Positions 42,400 to 53,221 of a stretch of 64,000 bases of DNA are shown piece by piece (positions within the stretch are counted from its first letter, which is position 1; each line of letters opens with the position of its first letter). Source of the stretch: an uncultured Lentimicrobium sp. (lineage in GTDB: Bacteria; Bacteroidota; Bacteroidia; Bacteroidales; Lentimicrobiaceae); the NCBI GenBank assembly GCA_964547915.1, contig CAZJPP010000014.1, positions 1,426 to 65,425 of the forward strand, given 5' to 3'. Under the pieces are notes generated by a model, which had not been told where the DNA came from, did not search any database, and saw nothing but the letters and a program-made list of their open reading frames with translations. A program made the translations under genes and the position numbers.

Positions 42400-43134
42400 C
42401 TATTTCCTCTCTGGCTTATTTGCAACGTATGAATTAATGACCTGATAGTATCCGTTTCGTATTGCAAAGAGCTTTTCCTTATCCAAACCCTCCCTGTAAA
42501 TTCTTACCATATCTATTATGCTGTGGTTCTCATAGAAGAAAGCATTTGCAGCATCAAAATACAGTAAATTAATATCATACTGCACTTCCATAGTAAGCTC
42601 CTTAAACTGAGCCCATGAAAAATGATTAGGGATAATGAAATACCCGTGATGAGGTTCAAAAACATCCAGGTACATTAAATCACCAATCGGCTCAAGGAAG
42701 AACGACTTTTCCAGCCTGACAATACCTGTTTCACCTTTAATTTTTCTTAACCTCTTATGGTATTCCAGTCCCTCGTCGGCAAAAAGTCGCTGTAGAATAG
42801 CAATATGGTCATACATTTCGAGGTTTCTTACTCTGATAATCTGATGTTTCATTCCAAAAATTTCAAGAAAACCGGGAACAGCATCAAACTTGTGAGGAAA
42901 ATTCTTTCTAACCTTTATTATTATCCTCCACATTTTTTCAAGAGAATAGGTTTGTCCGAGTACAAGATAGAAGTACAACGGCTTAGTTTGAACAGTAAAC
43001 CGCTCATAATAGCCTCTGAAAGGATATTCCGATTCAAGAAGACAGGCATTTGGCATGAAAATTTCACCGTCTATGCAACTAAGGGTTTCCTCTTTTTCGA
43101 GGCAGCCGAATCTTTCAATAGTGGTATGTTCCAT
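42400..43134 (-). CDS. Hypothetical cytoplasmic protein with an apparent internal duplication
   Basis: 244-aa ORF with ATG start and a terminator at its 3' end; two similar halves (FDAVPGF...IIRV and FDAANAF...MVRI). Confidence 0.75.
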   Translation of the reverse strand: MEHTTIERFGCLEKEETLSCIDGEIFMPNACLLESEYPFRGYYERFTVQTKPLYFYLVLGQTYSLEKMWRIIIKVRKNFPHKFDAVPGFLEIFGMKHQIIRVRNLEMYDHIAILQRLFADEGLEYHKRLRKIKGETGIVRLEKSFFLEPIGDLMYLDVFEPHHGYFIIPNHFSWAQFKELTMEVQYDINLLYFDAANAFFYENHSIIDMVRIYREGLDKEKLFAIRNGYYQVINSYVANKPERK

Positions 43135-45854: not shown

Positions 45855-46604
45855 TTATTTCCTGCCCAGAAAATCAAGAATCGCATTAATAAAAGTAAGA
45901 GGATGCACAGGGTTGCCCGGAATATACAGGTCAACCCTGTACTTTTTCAGAAAACTCCTGTCAATTGCCTCGCTATCAGCAAAAACCCCACCGCTGATTG
46001 CATCAGTTCCGGCAAGTACAATAATCTTAGGCTCAGGAATTGCCTTATAAGTAAGCTCAAGTGCCCGGGCCATATTTTCAGAAACCGGACCCGTAATCAC
46101 AATACCATCAGCATGCCTGGGCGAGGCCACAAAGTCAATCCCAAACCTGCTCATATCAAACTGGACATTATTACTTGCGTTCAACTCCCATTCAGTGCTG
46201 TTATCACCTGCAGCCGAAACCTGTCTGAATTTAATAGAACGGCCAAGAATACGGTGAATCTCTTTCCTAACCAGATCAGGGTTCATCAGAATAGGCATGT
46301 CTTCATTCTCCCTTACAATCAAGCGCTCTCTTTCATTAGACGCCAACTTGTAATCGGGCGTGAATCTTACCTTTTCGGGATATCTTAATGCACATTCGCC
46401 GCAGAAAACACACTTACCGAGATCAATTGTCACAGGATTAATCCCTATAGCCTGCGTGGGACAAACATCTTTCAACTTCTCTTCATTCACTTCAACGGCT
46501 GAAATAACAGGCCTTCCCCTGAATATTCCCGGTACTTTGGCATTCCGGATATCAGGAATATACTGTTTCCCCTGGTGCCACAATATCTTTAAGTTTTCGA
46601 GCAT
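45855..46604 (-). CDS. Ehr complex ferredoxin (NuoI-like) and small-subunit (NuoB/HycG-like) fusion with degenerate Fe-S ligands
   Basis: DVCP...CVFCGECALRYP; SPRHADGIVITGPV; ligand positions read GDNST, GTDAISGG, PGNPVHP. Confidence 0.85.
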   Translation of the reverse strand: MLENLKILWHQGKQYIPDIRNAKVPGIFRGRPVISAVEVNEEKLKDVCPTQAIGINPVTIDLGKCVFCGECALRYPEKVRFTPDYKLASNERERLIVRENEDMPILMNPDLVRKEIHRILGRSIKFRQVSAAGDNSTEWELNASNNVQFDMSRFGIDFVASPRHADGIVITGPVSENMARALELTYKAIPEPKIIVLAGTDAISGGVFADSEAIDRSFLKKYRVDLYIPGNPVHPLTFINAILDFLGRK

Positions 46605-46612
46605 AGCATTAA

Positions 46613-48208
46613 TTATAAATCATGACCACAGTACGACAAATTGAAACTCTTATTACAAACAGGGAAATCAGAAATTCCATTATCTCTGACTGCCTGAGCC
46701 AGCGCCATCCAGTTATGGAATGACGGATCCTTAATTTTATACAGCAGCAGCTCACCCTGATTTCCTGTTATAGCACAATGACATATCTCACCCCTCCATC
46801 CTTCTGCCAGAGAAACAATGAATGCATTAGCCATCGGTGTCATCTTATCCCATGCTTCATAAGAAAAGGAACCATCACGCTCTTCAGGCAGATGATTCAT
46901 CAGTTCACGGAGATAACCTATTGATTGCTTAATTTCTTCTTTACGTATCTGCACTCTCGAATAAACATCGCCGTGATGCTTGATTACAGGCTTATGGTCA
47001 ATCAGTTTTCCATAAAGGTTATAAGGATGAGATGCCCTGATATCCCTGTTAAGCCCACTCATGCGTGCAGACATACCAACAGTCCCGATTTCGAGCACTC
47101 GGTCATAGTTTACAACTCCGGTTTTTTCCATTCGCGACAGAGTGCTTGGAAGGCTTGTAAACTTCTCGGTAATTTCATCAAAGTCCTTTTCATAAGCCTT
47201 AAGAATATCAAGCAGCCTATTCTTAAGTGCCGGAGTAAAGGGATAATTTATTCTTGCAGGCCTTATCAGACCTTTACCCAATCTGTTTCCTCCCCATTCC
47301 TGCAAAAAATTGACCATAGGAGTCCTTAGACGACCATACACAGCATTTCCGAGCTGATAGGCAATATCTGCACATACTGCAGCAAGGTCGCCTGTATGAA
47401 TCGCCAAACGCTCAATTTCAGCAGCAACAGTCTTTCCGAAATCAAGCTCGTAATCTGCCTTAACTCCACAAAGACTCTCCCATAAATTGGCGAACACAGA
47501 TGTATGTCCTGCAACAGTATCACCCGCAATCTGTTCAGCAAGAACAGACCTTTCAATCAGTTTTTTCTTCTTTAGGAACAACTTCTCAACACCCCTGTGC
47601 TGATATCCCAGCTGAATTTCAAGGTGCATAATTTGCTCGCCATTACAAAGAAATCTGAAATGCCCGGGCTCAATCACACCGGCATGAACAGGCCCCACTC
47701 CCACTTCATGTAACTCCTCTCCGCTCGCTCTCAAAAAAGGATGGTCACCTATCCGAACCTCCGGATTATGGCGGTCATGCGAATACCTTAATGGCTTAAG
47801 CCAGGGATGATCATTATATTGTATTCCAAAGTTCTCGTGAAGTTCCCTCTCAAAACCTTCAAAGTTGTGATTAACAGCCGTAAGCGATGCGTATGACTCA
47901 TTTGATTTAACCCGTGTTGAAGAAATAAGGATTTTATGAAGCTCATCATCAGCAATACAGCAAAAGAGAGCTATTTCATCACCCCCTGCAGGTATTACTT
48001 TTGAATCCCCCGTTAAAGCTGTTCCTGCATGTTCCCTGCTCCCGAAAAGATTAACACAATGGCGGTGAGTGGCATCACGCAGAAGCCCTGTATTTAAATT
48101 AAGGAACTCCTCATAACCAACTACCGGTATTTTCGCAATCTCAACAGGTTGGTTATTCTCTGCTGATATAAATAAACTCTTGTCAAATGCTGATAACTGG
48201 TCCATCAA
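46613..48208 (-). CDS. Ehr complex large subunit (NuoC+NuoD / HycE-like) without Ni-binding motifs
   Basis: VGPVHAGVIEPGHFRF, LGYQHRGVEK, EIERLAIH, HGDVYSRVQIR, EGWRGE, KIKDPSF; L1 reads EQIAGDTVAGH and L2 reads DFPVCNKSFNLSYCGHDL. Confidence 0.88.
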   Translation of the reverse strand: MMDQLSAFDKSLFISAENNQPVEIAKIPVVGYEEFLNLNTGLLRDATHRHCVNLFGSREHAGTALTGDSKVIPAGGDEIALFCCIADDELHKILISSTRVKSNESYASLTAVNHNFEGFERELHENFGIQYNDHPWLKPLRYSHDRHNPEVRIGDHPFLRASGEELHEVGVGPVHAGVIEPGHFRFLCNGEQIMHLEIQLGYQHRGVEKLFLKKKKLIERSVLAEQIAGDTVAGHTSVFANLWESLCGVKADYELDFGKTVAAEIERLAIHTGDLAAVCADIAYQLGNAVYGRLRTPMVNFLQEWGGNRLGKGLIRPARINYPFTPALKNRLLDILKAYEKDFDEITEKFTSLPSTLSRMEKTGVVNYDRVLEIGTVGMSARMSGLNRDIRASHPYNLYGKLIDHKPVIKHHGDVYSRVQIRKEEIKQSIGYLRELMNHLPEERDGSFSYEAWDKMTPMANAFIVSLAEGWRGEICHCAITGNQGELLLYKIKDPSFHNWMALAQAVRDNGISDFPVCNKSFNLSYCGHDL

Positions 48209-49635
48209 TGAATAAGTTTAACTGATTCTTCAATCATTGAAATAAATTCATACGGCGGAGCATATGCAAGCCATATTGCAAGTATTAGCAAAACGTACTG
48301 ACTCAGAGATTCCCATGGACTTATTTTAGGAATCCGCGATTCATCTATTTTAACCGGAGGAGTAAACAACACTTTAAAAACATTGGTACCAAACCCCCAG
48401 ATAATTATTGTTAATAAAATCAGCACGGCCAGCAGAATCACGAAGTGATGTCCTTCGAACAGAGCCTGAAAAATCATAAGTTCGCTAATAAACAATCCTG
48501 ATGGAGGCATTGCGGTAGCCGAAATAAAACCGAGTAACAGCACAATAGCTCCCGCTTTATAATACTTAAAGTAGTTGCCCATATCGTAAACGCTCTTGCT
48601 CTCATAAACTCTGTATACCATACTAAACTGGAAAAACAAGCCCGGTTTAACAAAAGTATGTAGCACTATATGGAGGATGGCGGCATAAACACCAACACCT
48701 CCGGCTGCCAAACCAAGCATCACCAGTCCCATATGCTCAATACCTGAATACGCAAGAATACGCTTGAAATTCTTAACACGTGTCATATAAACCGCTGCAA
48801 CAAATATTGTAAGGATAGCAGCAATAAGAATTACAGCATTTGCCCAGCCTTTCAGTTCACTATGAGCCATAATAGCATACACCCTGTAAACTCCAACAAA
48901 TCCAACGTTCATTAAAACGCTTGCCAGCAAAGCGGCAGCCGGAGCAGGTGCTTTATCCTTTGCATCAATACCTGCGGTATACATTGGTACTAATCCCAGT
49001 TTCACGGTAAATCCGGTGAAAATGAAAAGAAACGCAAGCTTAAGCCAGAATGGATTTAACTGAGCACTGTGTTCATACAGCGATTTGAAAGTCATTGAAT
49101 CTATACCTGCCTGCTTCAGCGACAGGCTCAGGAAAAGGATGCCTACATAAATAAAAGTAATGCTGATTGCACAAAGGAACACATATTTCCACACTCCCTC
49201 GAGCGCTCTCATATTCCTGTGATGATATATCAGCACTGATGCACTCAGAGTCGTTATTTCAACAAAAATCCAGTTAACGGCAATGTGATTCGATATGTAT
49301 GCCATTGAACATGCCGTGATCAGTAAAATCATTGCTCCGAAGAACAGACCCCTTGAACCCGGTGTTTCTTCCTTTCTGTTTACGATATACCTGTACCCGT
49401 GCCATAATGCAGGAACTGTAACAATGGCCAGTGATGCAATCATTAATAAACCCAGTGAATCAGGCTGAAAATAATGCAATTCAGTCACACCTTTGTTAAA
49501 GAATGAGTATACACCATAACCCACCAGAAGCAAAGCATATAGAATAACCAGCGTGTAGTTGATCCGGGTATTTCTATTATAAATGAGCAATCCGCAGATA
49601 AGCAAAGAAGCTGCCAGAAAAATCCCTGTTCCCAT
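48205..49635 (-). CDS. hyfF: Ehr complex antiporter-like membrane subunit (HyfF-like)
   Basis: WIFVEITTL, ALEGVWKY, GFTVKLGL, KRILAYSGIEHMG, MPPSGLFISE; about 14 TM helices. Confidence 0.8.
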   Translation of the reverse strand: MGTGIFLAASLLICGLLIYNRNTRINYTLVILYALLLVGYGVYSFFNKGVTELHYFQPDSLGLLMIASLAIVTVPALWHGYRYIVNRKEETPGSRGLFFGAMILLITACSMAYISNHIAVNWIFVEITTLSASVLIYHHRNMRALEGVWKYVFLCAISITFIYVGILFLSLSLKQAGIDSMTFKSLYEHSAQLNPFWLKLAFLFIFTGFTVKLGLVPMYTAGIDAKDKAPAPAAALLASVLMNVGFVGVYRVYAIMAHSELKGWANAVILIAAILTIFVAAVYMTRVKNFKRILAYSGIEHMGLVMLGLAAGGVGVYAAILHIVLHTFVKPGLFFQFSMVYRVYESKSVYDMGNYFKYYKAGAIVLLLGFISATAMPPSGLFISELMIFQALFEGHHFVILLAVLILLTIIIWGFGTNVFKVLFTPPVKIDESRIPKISPWESLSQYVLLILAIWLAYAPPYEFISMIEESVKLIH

Positions 49636-49638
49636 CTC

Positions 49639-50268
49639 TTAATCCTTTAAATTTCTTAAAAGTTCAACATCAGGATCTTTAATGACATCACCAATTTTAT
49701 TAAAGAACACTCCCAAAATCAGCACACTGGCAAATATGTCGAGCATTATACCCAGATTCACCATCATGGGCATCTCATTTCCAACAGCGAGCGACAATAT
49801 AAAAACTCCATTCTCAATGATTAGATACCCGATAACATGAGTAATAATCTTCTTTCTCGAAACAATAAGATATAGCCCTGTAAACAATGTAGAAAGGGCC
49901 ACCACGAAAAAGGTTTTATCAAGATTAGGATCATCAATAGATCCCGAGATAATTATGGTAAGCACAATTATAAGTGTTACTATAATAAGCGACACAAAAT
50001 AAGGCACATAAGGTTCTGTTTCACGTGTAATCTTATTCCTCTTGATAATGTAGTTCATGAAATAAGGCACTGCAATAGCTTTAAATACAATAGTTTCGAG
50101 CATAATAAACAGCAGGTTCACCGTATTTACGTCTTTAAGAGTAAGATACGTCGTACCAAACAGAATCAATCCCTGTATTACAAGGATTCTCAGGTATGTA
50201 TATAACCTGTTGGCAATGCTCAGATAAAGCAGTGTCATGGCCAGGGCTATAAGTAGTATATCTGTCAT
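49639..50268 (-). CDS. hyfE: Ehr complex membrane subunit (HyfE-like)
   Basis: IVFKAIAVPYF, IITHVIGYLIIENGV, LGIMLDIF. Confidence 0.78.
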   Translation of the reverse strand: MTDILLIALAMTLLYLSIANRLYTYLRILVIQGLILFGTTYLTLKDVNTVNLLFIMLETIVFKAIAVPYFMNYIIKRNKITRETEPYVPYFVSLIIVTLIIVLTIIISGSIDDPNLDKTFFVVALSTLFTGLYLIVSRKKIITHVIGYLIIENGVFILSLAVGNEMPMMVNLGIMLDIFASVLILGVFFNKIGDVIKDPDVELLRNLKD

Positions 50269-50277
50269 GTTAGTGAT

Positions 50278-51183
50278 TTAAATGAATTTGCCCAATATTA
50301 AAAGCACTCCAAAAAACAGCAGTAATGAGAGTGACGTAAGTGTAAATATGAATTCAGGATTATGGCTCATCCTGAATCTTGCCGTAAACGATTCAATAAC
50401 ACCTACAACCGCGGCAAGTAAGACCTGTATACCAAGGAACGCGGGAATGCTAACGATAAGCGGTGATGCAGCAATATAAAAGTTAGCGATCAGGGCACCA
50501 TACATAGCAAACTTCAGGTTCGAAGTATACATAATCAAGCCAAGGTCAAAACCGCTATGGTCAAGTATCATAACTTCATGAACCATAGTAAGCTCAAGAT
50601 GTGTTTTAGGATCATCAACAGGCATTCGGCTATTTTCAATCATAGCAATCATAATCAGCAGATATGTTGCAAGGATACCTAGCATATAAGAGATATGAGA
50701 ACCAAAGTGCAGGCTGCTGAAAATTGAAGCAAAAGAAGTATTGCCGGTATATAAAGCGAATGAGCCCATTATAATAAAGAAAGCAGGCTCCACAAGCATT
50801 GCAAAAAGCGCTTCTCTTGCCGATCCCATTCCCTCAAAGCTGCTGCCGGTATCCAGGGCCGCAATAATCATCATAAAGCGTCCTAATGCCAACAGGTAGG
50901 CAAACATCACGAAATCGCCGTTAAACGAGATAAATCCCGGTTTGCTGCCATGAGGAATCATAAGTATGGCCATTACAACCGAAGAGAAATATATTACCGG
51001 TGCAATACGGAAAATCAAGCTGCTTGTGGAACTGTAAACCGATCCCTTTTTCCAGAGCCTGATAATATCTTTCATAGACTGCATTATCCCGGGGCCCTTT
51101 CTTCCCGAAGCAATACTCTTTGTCCGGTTCACTATCCCGGTAAAGTAAAAGCTGGCAAGTAAGATTAACACGAAACTCAACAT
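50278..51183 (-). CDS. hyfC: Ehr complex membrane subunit (HyfC/HycD/NuoH-like)
   Basis: GRKGPGIMQ..KDIIRLWKK, ALDTGSSFEGMGSARE, ENSRMPVDDPKTHLELTMVHE, IESFTARFR. Confidence 0.85.
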   Translation of the reverse strand: MLSFVLILLASFYFTGIVNRTKSIASGRKGPGIMQSMKDIIRLWKKGSVYSSTSSLIFRIAPVIYFSSVVMAILMIPHGSKPGFISFNGDFVMFAYLLALGRFMMIIAALDTGSSFEGMGSAREALFAMLVEPAFFIIMGSFALYTGNTSFASIFSSLHFGSHISYMLGILATYLLIMIAMIENSRMPVDDPKTHLELTMVHEVMILDHSGFDLGLIMYTSNLKFAMYGALIANFYIAASPLIVSIPAFLGIQVLLAAVVGVIESFTARFRMSHNPEFIFTLTSLSLLLFFGVLLILGKFI

Positions 51184-51184
51184 A

Positions 51185-53221
51185 CTACCACTGATTTATA
51201 AATTGTATCAACTCAATTACCTTGTCATAGAGCACAGGAACAATCACAGTTAAACCAATGAAGATGAAACCGTATAAAATATATGCCTGAATATTACCAT
51301 TCTGAAGAAATACAAACCTGTTTAGAAACTTCCGCATAAGGCGCAGAGGTTTATCAATCAACCATTTCTCAACCTTATCATATGGATGTGTCTCCTGATA
51401 TACCTTTTCGGGATACAACAATCCGGGTTCATGCTTATGACGTTTCACTAAAAGAACCGGCTCAGCAAGTTTACGGTAAGTTCTTATAAAAGATGAGGCT
51501 GTATATTGCATCTTACCTGCATCACCGGTATAACCGCAACCCCATGTTGATTCTTCCGTAATACTCCGGTTAGCTGTTAATAAGCGCCTTATAGCAAAGA
51601 CCACCAGTGTAAGCAAAACAAAAATGAGTGAATACCAACCAACAGAAGTTAAAATACCTGTAATCCCTTCAACTGATTGATACACATGCAAACTACTGCC
51701 CGAACCGCTGTATAAACCAACTACATTAGATAATACTGAAGTAAACAGGGTTGGAAACAATCCAATAAGCAAGATCAATCCTGCTATAATGTACAGAGGT
51801 CCCATTCTCCCGGCGTCTTCTTTAAGTTGAATATCCTCGATCCGGCTTCTGGGGGTGCCAAGAAAAACAACACCAAAAGCCTTGGTAAAACATATTAATG
51901 CAAGTCCGCCAATCAGCACCAATCCCAATATTGAAAAAAGAATGAATAAAATGAAGAGGAAATGATTTGATAAAAGACCATGAAACAGGCCACTGTATAT
52001 GAAAAACTCCGAAACAAATCCGTTAAAGGGTGGCAATCCACAAATAGCCAGTGAGGCTATAAGAAAGAGAAAAGCGGTCTTGGGCATCCTCTTAATAAGT
52101 CCACCCAGTTTCTCCACATCCATTGTGTGAGTAGCTTGGTAAACATTCCCGGCAGTATAAAACAACAATGATTTGAATAATGAATGATTTAGTGTATGCA
52201 ACATGGCCCCACCAAAGCCACCTGCTATTAACAGCGGATTATTATAGGCTACCCCGATACATCCAACACCGATACCAATTCCAATTATTCCAATATTCTC
52301 AATGCTATGATAAGCCAGCAGCTTCTTAAGGTTATGCTGTACAATTGCCAGCATAACGCCATATACTCCGGTAATAACTGAAATTGAAAGAATAATATAT
52401 CCAATTATCAGCATATCACTCTTAATTAGCAGCAGCGTTCTCAGTATACCATATATTCCAATCTTAATGATAACGCCCGACATAACACCTGATATATGGG
52501 CAGGCGCTGCAGGGTGTGCCAGAGGTAGCCATGTATGGAAAGGAACAAAACCTGCTTTAATGGCAAAACCCACAAAAAACAAAAGGAAAAGAGTAATTCC
52601 CGTAACCGCAGGCTCTGAATAAGTATAAGCTGCGATTGCCGACATATCGAATGTTCCCGTTCTCACGCGTGCAACAATAAATGCTATTGTGAGGAAAAGA
52701 ATCGATATATGCGATTGTATCAGAAAATTAATACCGGCTTTAAGCGTATCCCTTTTCTGATGTTCATAGATTATGAGAATAAACGAGCTTAGTGCCATAA
52801 TCTCCCATAAAACCAGAAAAACAATTCCATTTCCGGTAATACATATGTCGACCAGTGACGTAAAGGCTAATAAAAATGCAATTGAATGAAGTGCAAGCCC
52901 TGCTTTATCTTCAATGTAGCTCTTCATATACTTCATGCCATACCATGCGCCGGTAACAAAACCAAAGCTTATAATAAGAATAAACCAGGCAGAAAGGAAG
53001 TCAACCTTAACAGGTATTGTACCTGTGGTGAAAGAACCGGCATATGAAAAATTCACGGCCCCGTTAATAAATACCGAAACGGCAATAAACGAAGCAATAA
53101 TAGCCTGAACAGCAACAGCCACAAAGGTTATCTTGGCTCTGTTTCGGGTACTTAACACCGGGAAAGTCAGGAATGCAATAAATGGCAGAATATTGAATAA
53201 CTCAATCAACAGTTTATTCAT
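51185..53221 (-). CDS. hyfB: Ehr complex antiporter-like membrane subunit (HyfB/NuoL-like)
   Basis: LWEIMALSSF, FAIKAGFVPFHTWLPLAHPAAP, KKLLAYHSIENIG, NHSLFKSLLF, GLPPFNGFVSE, TWGCGY, YTASSF. Confidence 0.85.
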   Translation of the reverse strand: MNKLLIELFNILPFIAFLTFPVLSTRNRAKITFVAVAVQAIIASFIAVSVFINGAVNFSYAGSFTTGTIPVKVDFLSAWFILIISFGFVTGAWYGMKYMKSYIEDKAGLALHSIAFLLAFTSLVDICITGNGIVFLVLWEIMALSSFILIIYEHQKRDTLKAGINFLIQSHISILFLTIAFIVARVRTGTFDMSAIAAYTYSEPAVTGITLFLLFFVGFAIKAGFVPFHTWLPLAHPAAPAHISGVMSGVIIKIGIYGILRTLLLIKSDMLIIGYIILSISVITGVYGVMLAIVQHNLKKLLAYHSIENIGIIGIGIGVGCIGVAYNNPLLIAGGFGGAMLHTLNHSLFKSLLFYTAGNVYQATHTMDVEKLGGLIKRMPKTAFLFLIASLAICGLPPFNGFVSEFFIYSGLFHGLLSNHFLFILFILFSILGLVLIGGLALICFTKAFGVVFLGTPRSRIEDIQLKEDAGRMGPLYIIAGLILLIGLFPTLFTSVLSNVVGLYSGSGSSLHVYQSVEGITGILTSVGWYSLIFVLLTLVVFAIRRLLTANRSITEESTWGCGYTGDAGKMQYTASSFIRTYRKLAEPVLLVKRHKHEPGLLYPEKVYQETHPYDKVEKWLIDKPLRLMRKFLNRFVFLQNGNIQAYILYGFIFIGLTVIVPVLYDKVIELIQFINQW

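Follow-up and report, generated by a model that had tools for sequence, protein, structure and literature searches.

An Ehr operon whose small subunit carries Asp, Thr, Asp and Asn in place of the proximal-cluster cysteines

Introduction

In complex I, the membrane-bound hydrogenases and their relatives, redox chemistry at the interface between the large and the small subunit is thought to power ion pumping, and the nature of the coupling is debated. Here we describe ehrS, the small-subunit gene of an operon located in a 64,000-nucleotide stretch of DNA (the window) from contig CAZJPP010000014.1 of an uncultured Lentimicrobium sp. (assembly GCA_964547915.1). ehrS is the final gene of the tightly packed minus-strand operon ehrABCDLS, and its product combines a ferredoxin domain that has kept half of its cluster ligands with a NuoB-like domain in which all four cysteines of the proximal [4Fe-4S] cluster have been replaced.

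The ehrABCDLS gene arrangement is that of the complexes called Ehr (Ech-/energy-converting-hydrogenase-related; PMC6688271, PMC7894505). These were first named in Geobacter sulfurreducens for GSU0739-0745 (Coppi 2005 and Marreiros et al. 2013, as cited in PMC4758237, PMC6349859 and PMC6688271). They are defined by the missing ligands of the NiFe centre, and their function is described as unknown or never investigated (PMC6349859, PMC10284858, PMC7304191, PMC7894505, PMC12342949).

Results

The window encodes a complete Ehr operon

All six open reading frames (ORFs) of the operon have a Pfam or NCBIfam match, and together they provide the two antiporter-like subunits, the NuoH-like and HyfE-like subunits, the large subunit and the small subunit of an Ehr complex (Table 1). 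The top solved relative of EhrB is HycD (7z0s_D, 3.5e-22). The gene order and a large subunit without any of the four NiFe cysteines agree with the original prediction, made from the DNA sequence alone, that the gene of interest encodes an Ehr small subunit.

Table 1. Coordinates of the ehr genes and of the EhrS cluster-site motifs in the window
Feature	Position	Strand	Description
ehrS	45855..46604	(-)	Half-ferredoxin plus NuoB-like domain, 249 aa, intact ORF; PF01058 68.3 bits (cut-off 27)
EhrS G133-D134-N135-S136-T137	46194..46208	(-)	In place of GCNGC, proximal ligands 1 and 2
EhrS G199-T-D201-A-I-S-G-G	45987..46010	(-)	In place of GxCAxSGG, ligand 3
EhrS P229-G-N231-P	45909..45920	(-)	In place of PGCP, ligand 4
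EhrS NuoI/HycF-like ferredoxin domain, residues 25-100	46305..46532	(-)	One cluster site left; second motif aligns with E. coli NuoI 94-138
EhrS C48(P49)...C65-x2-C68-x2-C71	46392..46463	(-)	Four retained ligands, one [4Fe-4S] site
ehrL	46613..48208	(-)	Fused NuoC plus NuoD/HycE-like large subunit, 531 aa from TTG; PF00346 2.8e-31; PF00329 1e-5
ehrD	48205..49635	(-)	HyfF/NuoN-type antiporter-like, 476 aa; PF00361 2.3e-40; NF006427 1.5e-62
ehrC	49639..50268	(-)	HyfE-like membrane subunit, 209 aa; NF008556 'hydrogenase 4 membrane subunit' 1.7e-17; PF00420 weak
ehrB	50278..51183	(-)	NuoH/HycD-like membrane anchor, 301 aa; PF00146 2e-31
ehrA	51185..53221	(-)	HyfB/NuoL-type antiporter-like, 678 aa; PF00361 3.3e-51; NF005086 'hydrogenase 4 subunit B' 2.1e-145

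The proximal-cluster ligands of EhrS are replaced by conserved polar residues

The ligand positions of EhrS were set by pairwise HMMER alignment to the solved small subunits MbhJ (6cfw_J) and HycG (7z0s_G). D134 and T137 align to the two cysteines of GSCNGC/GGCNGC, D201 aligns to the cysteine of GAC and N231 to that of PGCP. The motifs GDNST, GTDAISGG and PGNP were reproduced by translating the window coordinates; those originally given for the first and last of them hold, whereas the interval given for GTDAISGG, 45999-46010, covers GTDA only. EhrS thus has the sequence and fold of the PF01058 small-subunit family and lacks the four-cysteine ligation of a proximal (N2) cluster, and at 79.8 against 116 it falls short of NCBIfam's cut-offs for NuoB.

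To gauge how widespread this ligand pattern is, we examined the 120 closest database homologs, most of which are ~70% identical to EhrS. D134 and N231 are present in every one of them, S136 and D201 in 119 each; position 136 is Gly in cluster-bearing relatives. Position 137 behaves differently, being Cys in 103 homologs, Asn in 10, Thr in 6 and Ala in 1, and across close relatives including the species loci described below it is occupied by C, N, T, A, S, V, I, G or H. Thr137 is carried by the window, by its two syntenic orthologs and by one Prolixibacteraceae metagenome-assembled genome (MAG) (nearest relatives L015, L017 and L027). Position 137 is therefore unconstrained, and the state without any cysteine is a recent variant of a family pattern with one leftover cysteine. 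The original claim that all four proximal cysteines are lost is accurate for the window and its nearest relatives, but the family as a whole usually keeps one, at position 137. In the same way, the proposed Asp/Thr/Asp/Asn signature is (near-)invariant at its two Asp and its Asn, but not at Thr, and because position 137 varies so freely Thr137 should be dropped from the Asp/Asn/Thr set that had been suggested to bind an ion. With this set of residues EhrS would have no N2-equivalent cluster, and the usual path of electrons to the large subunit would be cut.

An unusual metal centre might still sit in the pocket, for instance one in which carboxylates ligate an Fe-S cluster. Elsewhere, a lone Asp or His can serve as ligand to a [4Fe-4S] cluster, and Cys137 is kept in most family members. 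The site in the window is devoid of cysteine, however, position 137 is free in close relatives, and no cluster is known to us that has two Asp and an Asn as its ligands, so that we regard such a centre as very improbable.

One ferredoxin cluster site is left, probably that of the medial cluster

In 2[4Fe-4S] ferredoxins, three cysteines of one motif and the CP-cysteine of the other ligate the same cluster. The ferredoxin domain of EhrS does not contain the two CxxCxxCxxxCP motifs with eight cysteines of such proteins; four cysteines remain. The ligand positions 38, 41 and 44 of the first motif are Glu, Glu and Leu, leaving C48-P49, while the second motif retains C65, C68 and C71, which align with C99, C102 and C105 of E. 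coli NuoI, and ends in Y75-P76 instead of CP. Each of the four cysteines is Cys in all 120 homologs, and they are conserved across the 80 species loci. Read with the ligation rule, the four survivors make up exactly one [4Fe-4S] site, as had been proposed. The domain matches the Fer4 profile marginally (21.2 bits, cut-off 21.1) and misses the Fer4_7 cut-off.

In E. coli complex I, Cys74 of NuoI belongs to the environment of cluster N6b and Phe92 to that of N6a (PMC8357420). Cys74 lies four residues past C70, the CP-cysteine of the first motif, and Phe92 seven residues ahead of the second motif. Combining these environments with the EhrS/NuoI alignment and with the topology of ferredoxins, we assign NuoI C70 together with C99, C102 and C105 to N6b, the medial cluster beside N2, with moderate confidence. 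The cluster retained by EhrS would then, at the same moderate confidence, be the medial one, the equivalent of N6b, and the clusters on both sides of it would be gone. A literature search for an explicit list of the cysteines ligating N6a and N6b returned none.

The large subunit has neither a NiFe site nor a quinone-binding tyrosine

We aligned EhrL with MbhL (6cfw_L) and HycE (7z0s_E). At the CGxCxxxH site EhrL reads IAGDTVAGH (47504-47530), with Ala and Thr in place of the two cysteines, and at the DPCxxCxxR site it reads NLSYCGHDL (46616-46642), with Ser and Gly, so that the four NiFe-cysteine positions are A228, T231, S525 and G528. The large subunits of 68 species operons are NiFe-less without exception, and every copy has G229-D230-[TS]231 and LSYxGxDL. 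In the window's own genome (2.96 Mb, 94% complete) we found no match to PF00374, the NiFe large-subunit family, and none to HypD (PF01924). The NiFe cysteines and the Hyp marker HypD that characterise a group 4 [NiFe] hydrogenase are thus both missing from this genome at its 94% completeness. Assignment as a quinone-reducing complex I fares no better: in the 49-kDa subunit the quinone-binding Tyr belongs to LDY, and Gly229 of EhrL aligns with it, so that EhrL has no Tyr for the quinone headgroup, and the N2 ligands are absent. A separate, canonical NuoB is encoded on another contig of the same genome.

The QHRG and WRGE motifs, which supply the conserved EhrL His and Arg residues surrounding the proximal cluster, are retained; the residues are H204 and R205 in QHRG and R472 in WRGE. 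EhrL of the Bacteroidota clade has additional conserved Cys and His residues, namely H50 (98%), C51 (80%), C279 (83%) and C476 (100%); in the window C476-H477-C478 corresponds to 46773-46781 and H50-C51 to 48056-48061. As C476 is invariant in the clade lacking the proximal cluster and the position is mostly Val or Ala elsewhere, we considered it as a change compensating the cluster loss, and dropped the idea because cluster-bearing planctomycete and acidobacterial relatives have C476 too.

The losses occurred stepwise within one operon family

Scanning one genome per species yielded at least 600 matching stretches, of which the best 80 were analysed as species loci. They belong to ~10 phyla: within Bacteroidota to Bacteroidales, Prolixibacteraceae, Rikenellaceae/Alistipes, Paludibacter, Lentimicrobiaceae, Flavobacteriales, Saprospiraceae and Roseivirgaceae, and otherwise to Ignavibacteriota, Melainabacteria, Aminicenantes, Spirochaetota, Myxococcota, Planctomycetota, Omnitrophota and Acidobacteriota. 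The A-B-C-D-L-S order is preserved in nearly all sufficiently long loci. EhrS is the best conserved subunit (44-73% identity), the others dropping to 30-40%.

Small subunits of three groups were observed. In 29 of them, from phyla other than Bacteroidia and mostly with a full eight-cysteine ferredoxin, the proximal ligands are all cysteines (CCCC), and ~26 of the 68 species operons keep all three clusters. About 50 small subunits, from Bacteroidia, Flavobacteriia, Saprospiria and Cytophagia, show the pattern D-x-D/E-N/A together with a one-cluster ferredoxin; the variant D-[IV]-E-A, with Glu at the position of D201 and Ala at that of N231, is found in Alistipes/Rikenellaceae. The third group consists of some Melainabacteria that have kept the proximal cluster and lost the distal ferredoxin cluster. 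The Melainabacteria/Gastranaerophilales branch (L065-L077) keeps the proximal cluster, and its EhrL retains the first NiFe cysteine, C228, along with Ser231 and Tyr235. The order in which the electron wire was taken apart therefore differs between lineages.

In a tree of concatenated EhrS and EhrL (617 columns, ligand columns removed), the 41 Bacteroidota rows without the proximal cluster are monophyletic on a long stem, with an SH-aLRT support of 100%. The NuoB domain by itself (135 columns, 101 rows) gave a tree that resolved too poorly for counting losses and was set aside in favour of the concatenated one. Since all 68 large subunits are NiFe-less and the cluster-less Bacteroidota form a single clade, the NiFe site was lost first, in an event common to all, whereas the two Fe-S clusters were lost afterwards and once, in the Bacteroidota-type lineage.

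A planctomycete arrived at the same residues independently

One cluster-less copy lies outside this clade. The Isosphaeraceae copy L103 is nested in the CCCC clade of Planctomycetota and Acidobacteriota in the EhrS+EhrL tree, and it reads SAGGDNSSE, GADAISGG and PGNP where its relatives read AGCNACE, GACAISGG and PGCP. Forcing all cluster-less rows into a single clade costs 201 log-likelihood units (p-AU 9e-60). The codon changes from Cys to Asp or Asn, from TGC to GAT, GAC or AAC, require at least two nucleotide changes each. The copy retains all eight ferredoxin cysteines. These sequences show that the planctomycete lost its proximal-cluster ligands independently and acquired the same D-N-S-x, D and N residues. 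Among far representatives there is, in addition, a distant group of ~35% identity with the pattern D-x-D-S/D. Taken together, the independent origin in L103 and the distant group point to Asp at ligands 1 and 3, Ser136, and Asn or Ser at ligand 4 as a preferred solution, as opposed to a random outcome of relaxed constraint.

ehrS is under purifying selection and its fold is retained

We computed the ratio of nonsynonymous to synonymous substitution rates (dN/dS, NG86) against two syntenic orthologs of 94% and 90% amino-acid identity. The values for ehrS are 0.11 and 0.08, those for the other five ehr genes 0.02-0.09 and those for the adjacent lysS 0.02-0.04. Across the 120 homologs, 101 of the 249 EhrS positions are identical in at least 118 sequences. 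An AlphaFold2 model of EhrS built from 61 sequences is confident (pLDDT 93.7, pTM 0.90), and its NuoB-like half superimposes on MbhJ (6cfw_J) with a root-mean-square deviation of 1.8 Å over 130 columns and a TM(target) of 0.84, and on PSST/NuoB of complex I with ~2.3 Å (Foldseek, overall range 1.8-2.4 Å).

A decaying remnant of a hydrogenase operon could also have lost its classical cofactor ligands, all of which are gone except four, and could show the patchy distribution that we observe, with the operon present in 19 of 401 genomes of an even sample of the phylum (~5%, the window's own genome counted) and in 9 of 24 genomes of the same genus. The low dN/dS, which is not that of a neutrally evolving pseudogene, the intact operon in nearly all sufficiently long loci, the rank of EhrS as most conserved subunit and its confident NuoB-like fold matching MbhJ rule out decay, which we give next to no chance. 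The original prediction of selection rather than decay is thus borne out, further support coming from the invariance of D134 and N231, the presence of D201 in 119 of 120 homologs and the fact that the same replacement arose twice.

The membrane arm is unchanged and no partner gene is conserved

The membrane subunits were compared between clades that have the proximal cluster and clades that lack it. In EhrA the motifs WE, KAGxxPxHxWLPxAH, KxG, LAYxSxENxG, HxxNHxxFK and PPxNGFxSE reach a conservation of at least 90% in both, and the Glu of transmembrane helix (TM) 5, the Lys of TM7 and TM8 and the His/Lys pair are the same. Likewise, the DTGSSFEGMG and EP motifs of EhrB and its loop RxPxDDPxTHLELTMxHEVMxLDxSGxD are at least 90% conserved and identical between the clades. 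EhrD has retained the TM5 Glu and the TM7 Lys, and has Asn at the position of the TM8 Lys. Judged by these motifs, the membrane arm looks fully functional.

We searched the surroundings of the operon for formate dehydrogenase, carbonic anhydrase and ATP synthase genes, none of which is conserved in the 80 loci. No flanking gene is conserved beyond the six ehr genes, the largest flanking cluster being common to 6 of the 80 loci. These results bear on the possibility that the complex is still redox-driven by another route, in which the retained [4Fe-4S] cluster takes electrons from ferredoxin or from an unlinked partner and passes them directly to a nearby substrate or redox partner. The invariance of the four cysteines of the retained site would fit such a route, as would the full three-cluster chain of relatives with the same membrane arm and the increase of Ehr subunits in G. 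sulfurreducens with formate (PMC7894505). There is, however, no conserved partner gene beside the operon, EhrL lacks the NiFe cysteines and has Gly229 in place of the quinone-binding Tyr, and with both neighbouring clusters gone the putative medial cluster would have no wired acceptor. On this evidence we think an alternative electron route improbable.

Additional features of the locus and of related loci

The longest ORF of ehrL opens with TTG (window 48203-48208), while its orthologs are called from ATG at the next codon. This ATG overlaps the ehrD stop codon by one base, which suggests translational coupling of the two genes. Two genes downstream of the operon lies an ORF of 244 aa (42400-43134, minus strand); its synteny is kept in the closest relatives, L015-L018, and its orthologs carry no recorded Pfam match.

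A few related loci deviate from the common arrangement. In L016 (6347-6966) the HyfE-like gene is called in two pieces of 164 and 44 aa on a metagenome contig that is otherwise near-identical to and syntenic with the window; a frameshift or a sequencing error could account for this. L086 has several extra EhrB, EhrC, EhrD and EhrL matches and may carry a second, more divergent Ehr operon beside the first, and L046 contains many EhrA-like fragments. An EhrS-like gene of the DCDN or DADN type stands alone in the Flavobacteriaceae MAG L048 (8986-9741), in L047 and in L053, and a BLAST scan of these three loci found no other ehr gene; in L048 both genes upstream of it are on the opposite strand. 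It thus appears that a few genomes carry an orphan or relocated small subunit.

Discussion

A plausible history starts from a fused HyfH/HyfI-type small subunit with three [4Fe-4S] clusters, of which the distal and the medial would have resided in the ferredoxin part and the proximal, N2-like one in the NuoB part. In the Bacteroidota-wide clade that includes the window, two of the three would have been removed, with Asp replacing proximal ligands 1 and 3, Asn replacing ligand 4 and a residue that varies, here Thr, replacing ligand 2, and with the ferredoxin giving up three cysteines of its first motif and the last one of its second, so that one four-cysteine site, presumably the medial, was left. 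With the NiFe site gone as well as the proximal and distal clusters, no electron would be expected to reach the pocket between the large and the small subunit from a donor at the arm's tip. On balance we consider it probable that the complex still moves ions, with no electron wire running through EhrS. Because the ion-pathway residues of the membrane arm and the coupling loop are unchanged, its most likely working mode would be to translocate ions, for example as a cation/proton exchanger or as a device driven by a gradient. The peripheral arm might then serve as a structural or regulatory cap instead of an electron-transfer module, and the lone remaining cluster could have a structural role or act as a sensor of redox state or O2.

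How the vacated site would be filled can be rationalised by charge. An oxidised [4Fe-4S] cluster with four thiolate ligands has a net charge of -2, and two Asp residues carry the same charge. We therefore propose that the two Asp and the Asn, together with Ser136, may take the place of the cluster and, by mimicking its charge and volume, maintain the electrostatics and packing of the pocket.

Asp134, Ser136, Asp201 and Asn231 might instead constitute a new functional site, in which a cation (Na+, Mg2+, Ca2+ or Mn2+) or a protonatable pair drives or gates the coupling in place of cluster reduction. Their (near-)invariance, the independent appearance of the same four residues in the planctomycete through multi-nucleotide codon changes, the distant D-x-D-S/D group and the unchanged coupling loop and ion-pathway motifs would all be in line with this. 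The D-[IV]-E-A pattern of Alistipes/Rikenellaceae, on the other hand, shows the Asn to be dispensable, and in mitochondrial complex I, where cluster N7 has been lost, Asp, Ser and water show that such residues can do no more than fill the site. We therefore hold a new functional site to be possible, if rather unlikely. Taking it one step further, the proximal pocket could have been converted at least twice independently into a carboxylate site that triggers coupling by protonation or cation binding, which would make the Bacteroidota Ehr complex a natural relative of complex I that runs without redox chemistry, as a gated cation/proton exchanger or powered by a gradient, its lone [4Fe-4S] cluster serving as redox sensor; we offer this as a tentative extension to which we assign a minor share of probability.

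Several points weigh against our preferred reading of an ion-moving complex without an electron wire. The function of Ehr complexes is given as unknown in the literature (PMC7894505, PMC12342949). The proposed ion-translocating role draws on conserved motifs only. Many relatives with the same membrane arm retain all three clusters, so that redox chemistry may be important to the family, and in the Bacteroidota clade electrons may enter by an unseen route. The invariance and convergence of the D/S/D/N residues fit a specific ion or proton site at least as well as they fit passive filling. Finally, the Ehr operon is accessory.

The Bacteroidota clade, which is widespread and under strong selection, keeps the entire coupling and pumping apparatus with a conserved carboxylate pocket in place of the terminal cluster, and so offers a natural experiment on the capabilities of such a machine when electron transfer is absent. 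A practical aspect concerns annotation, as these genes are routinely labelled 'Ni,Fe-hydrogenase III small subunit' or 'NADH:ubiquinone oxidoreductase', names that mislead metabolic reconstructions of Bacteroidota, gut Alistipes included.

Comparison with known systems

EhrS shares with HycG, MbhJ and NuoB (PF01058) the fold, the motifs around the ligands and the place beside the large subunit, but differs from them in that the four [4Fe-4S] cysteines have become D/T/D/N and a ferredoxin domain is fused to its N-terminus. This ferredoxin resembles NuoI, HycF, HyfH and MbhN, its second CxxCxxC and the following strand aligning with E. coli NuoI and its C48-P49 corresponding to the last cysteine of the first motif. 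In contrast to those proteins it has lost half of the ligands, can form one cluster only and is joined to a NuoB-like domain instead of forming a separate subunit.

With Mrp antiporters the complex has in common the MrpA/MrpD-type subunits EhrA and EhrD with their conserved Glu, Lys and His, which makes action without redox chemistry conceivable, whereas the NuoH-like subunit and the complete peripheral arm (NuoB/C/D/I-like) set the Ehr complex apart. None of the six ehr genes, which make up the whole operon, is annotated as MrpE-, MrpF- or MrpG-like, although no search was aimed at these three.

A precedent for the loss of a [4Fe-4S] site with retention of the fold is provided by cluster N7 in the 75-kDa subunit of mitochondrial complex I: at the positions of the four N7 cysteines of E. 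coli NuoG the ovine enzyme has Asp, Asp, Ser and Ser, and waters are listed as replacing N7 (PMC8357420). N7 lies off the pathway, however, so that its loss leaves electron transfer uninterrupted, while the cluster missing from EhrS is an on-pathway one.

The other Ehr complexes are the closest comparison. They have the same six-gene order, a large subunit of group 4 hydrogenase type without NiFe cysteines, two antiporter-like subunits and the NuoH-like and HyfE-like subunits, but other members of the operon family keep three clusters where the small subunit described here has additionally lost the proximal and the distal one. Loss of clusters from the small subunit is not mentioned in PMC6349859, PMC10284858, PMC7304191, PMC7894505 or PMC12342949; the founding papers, Coppi 2005 and Marreiros 2013, lie outside this comparison and may mention it. 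Relative to that literature, the new elements are the succession of losses in a single family of orthologous operons, the one-time origin in Bacteroidota, the second origin with identical residues and the membrane arm that has stayed unchanged throughout.

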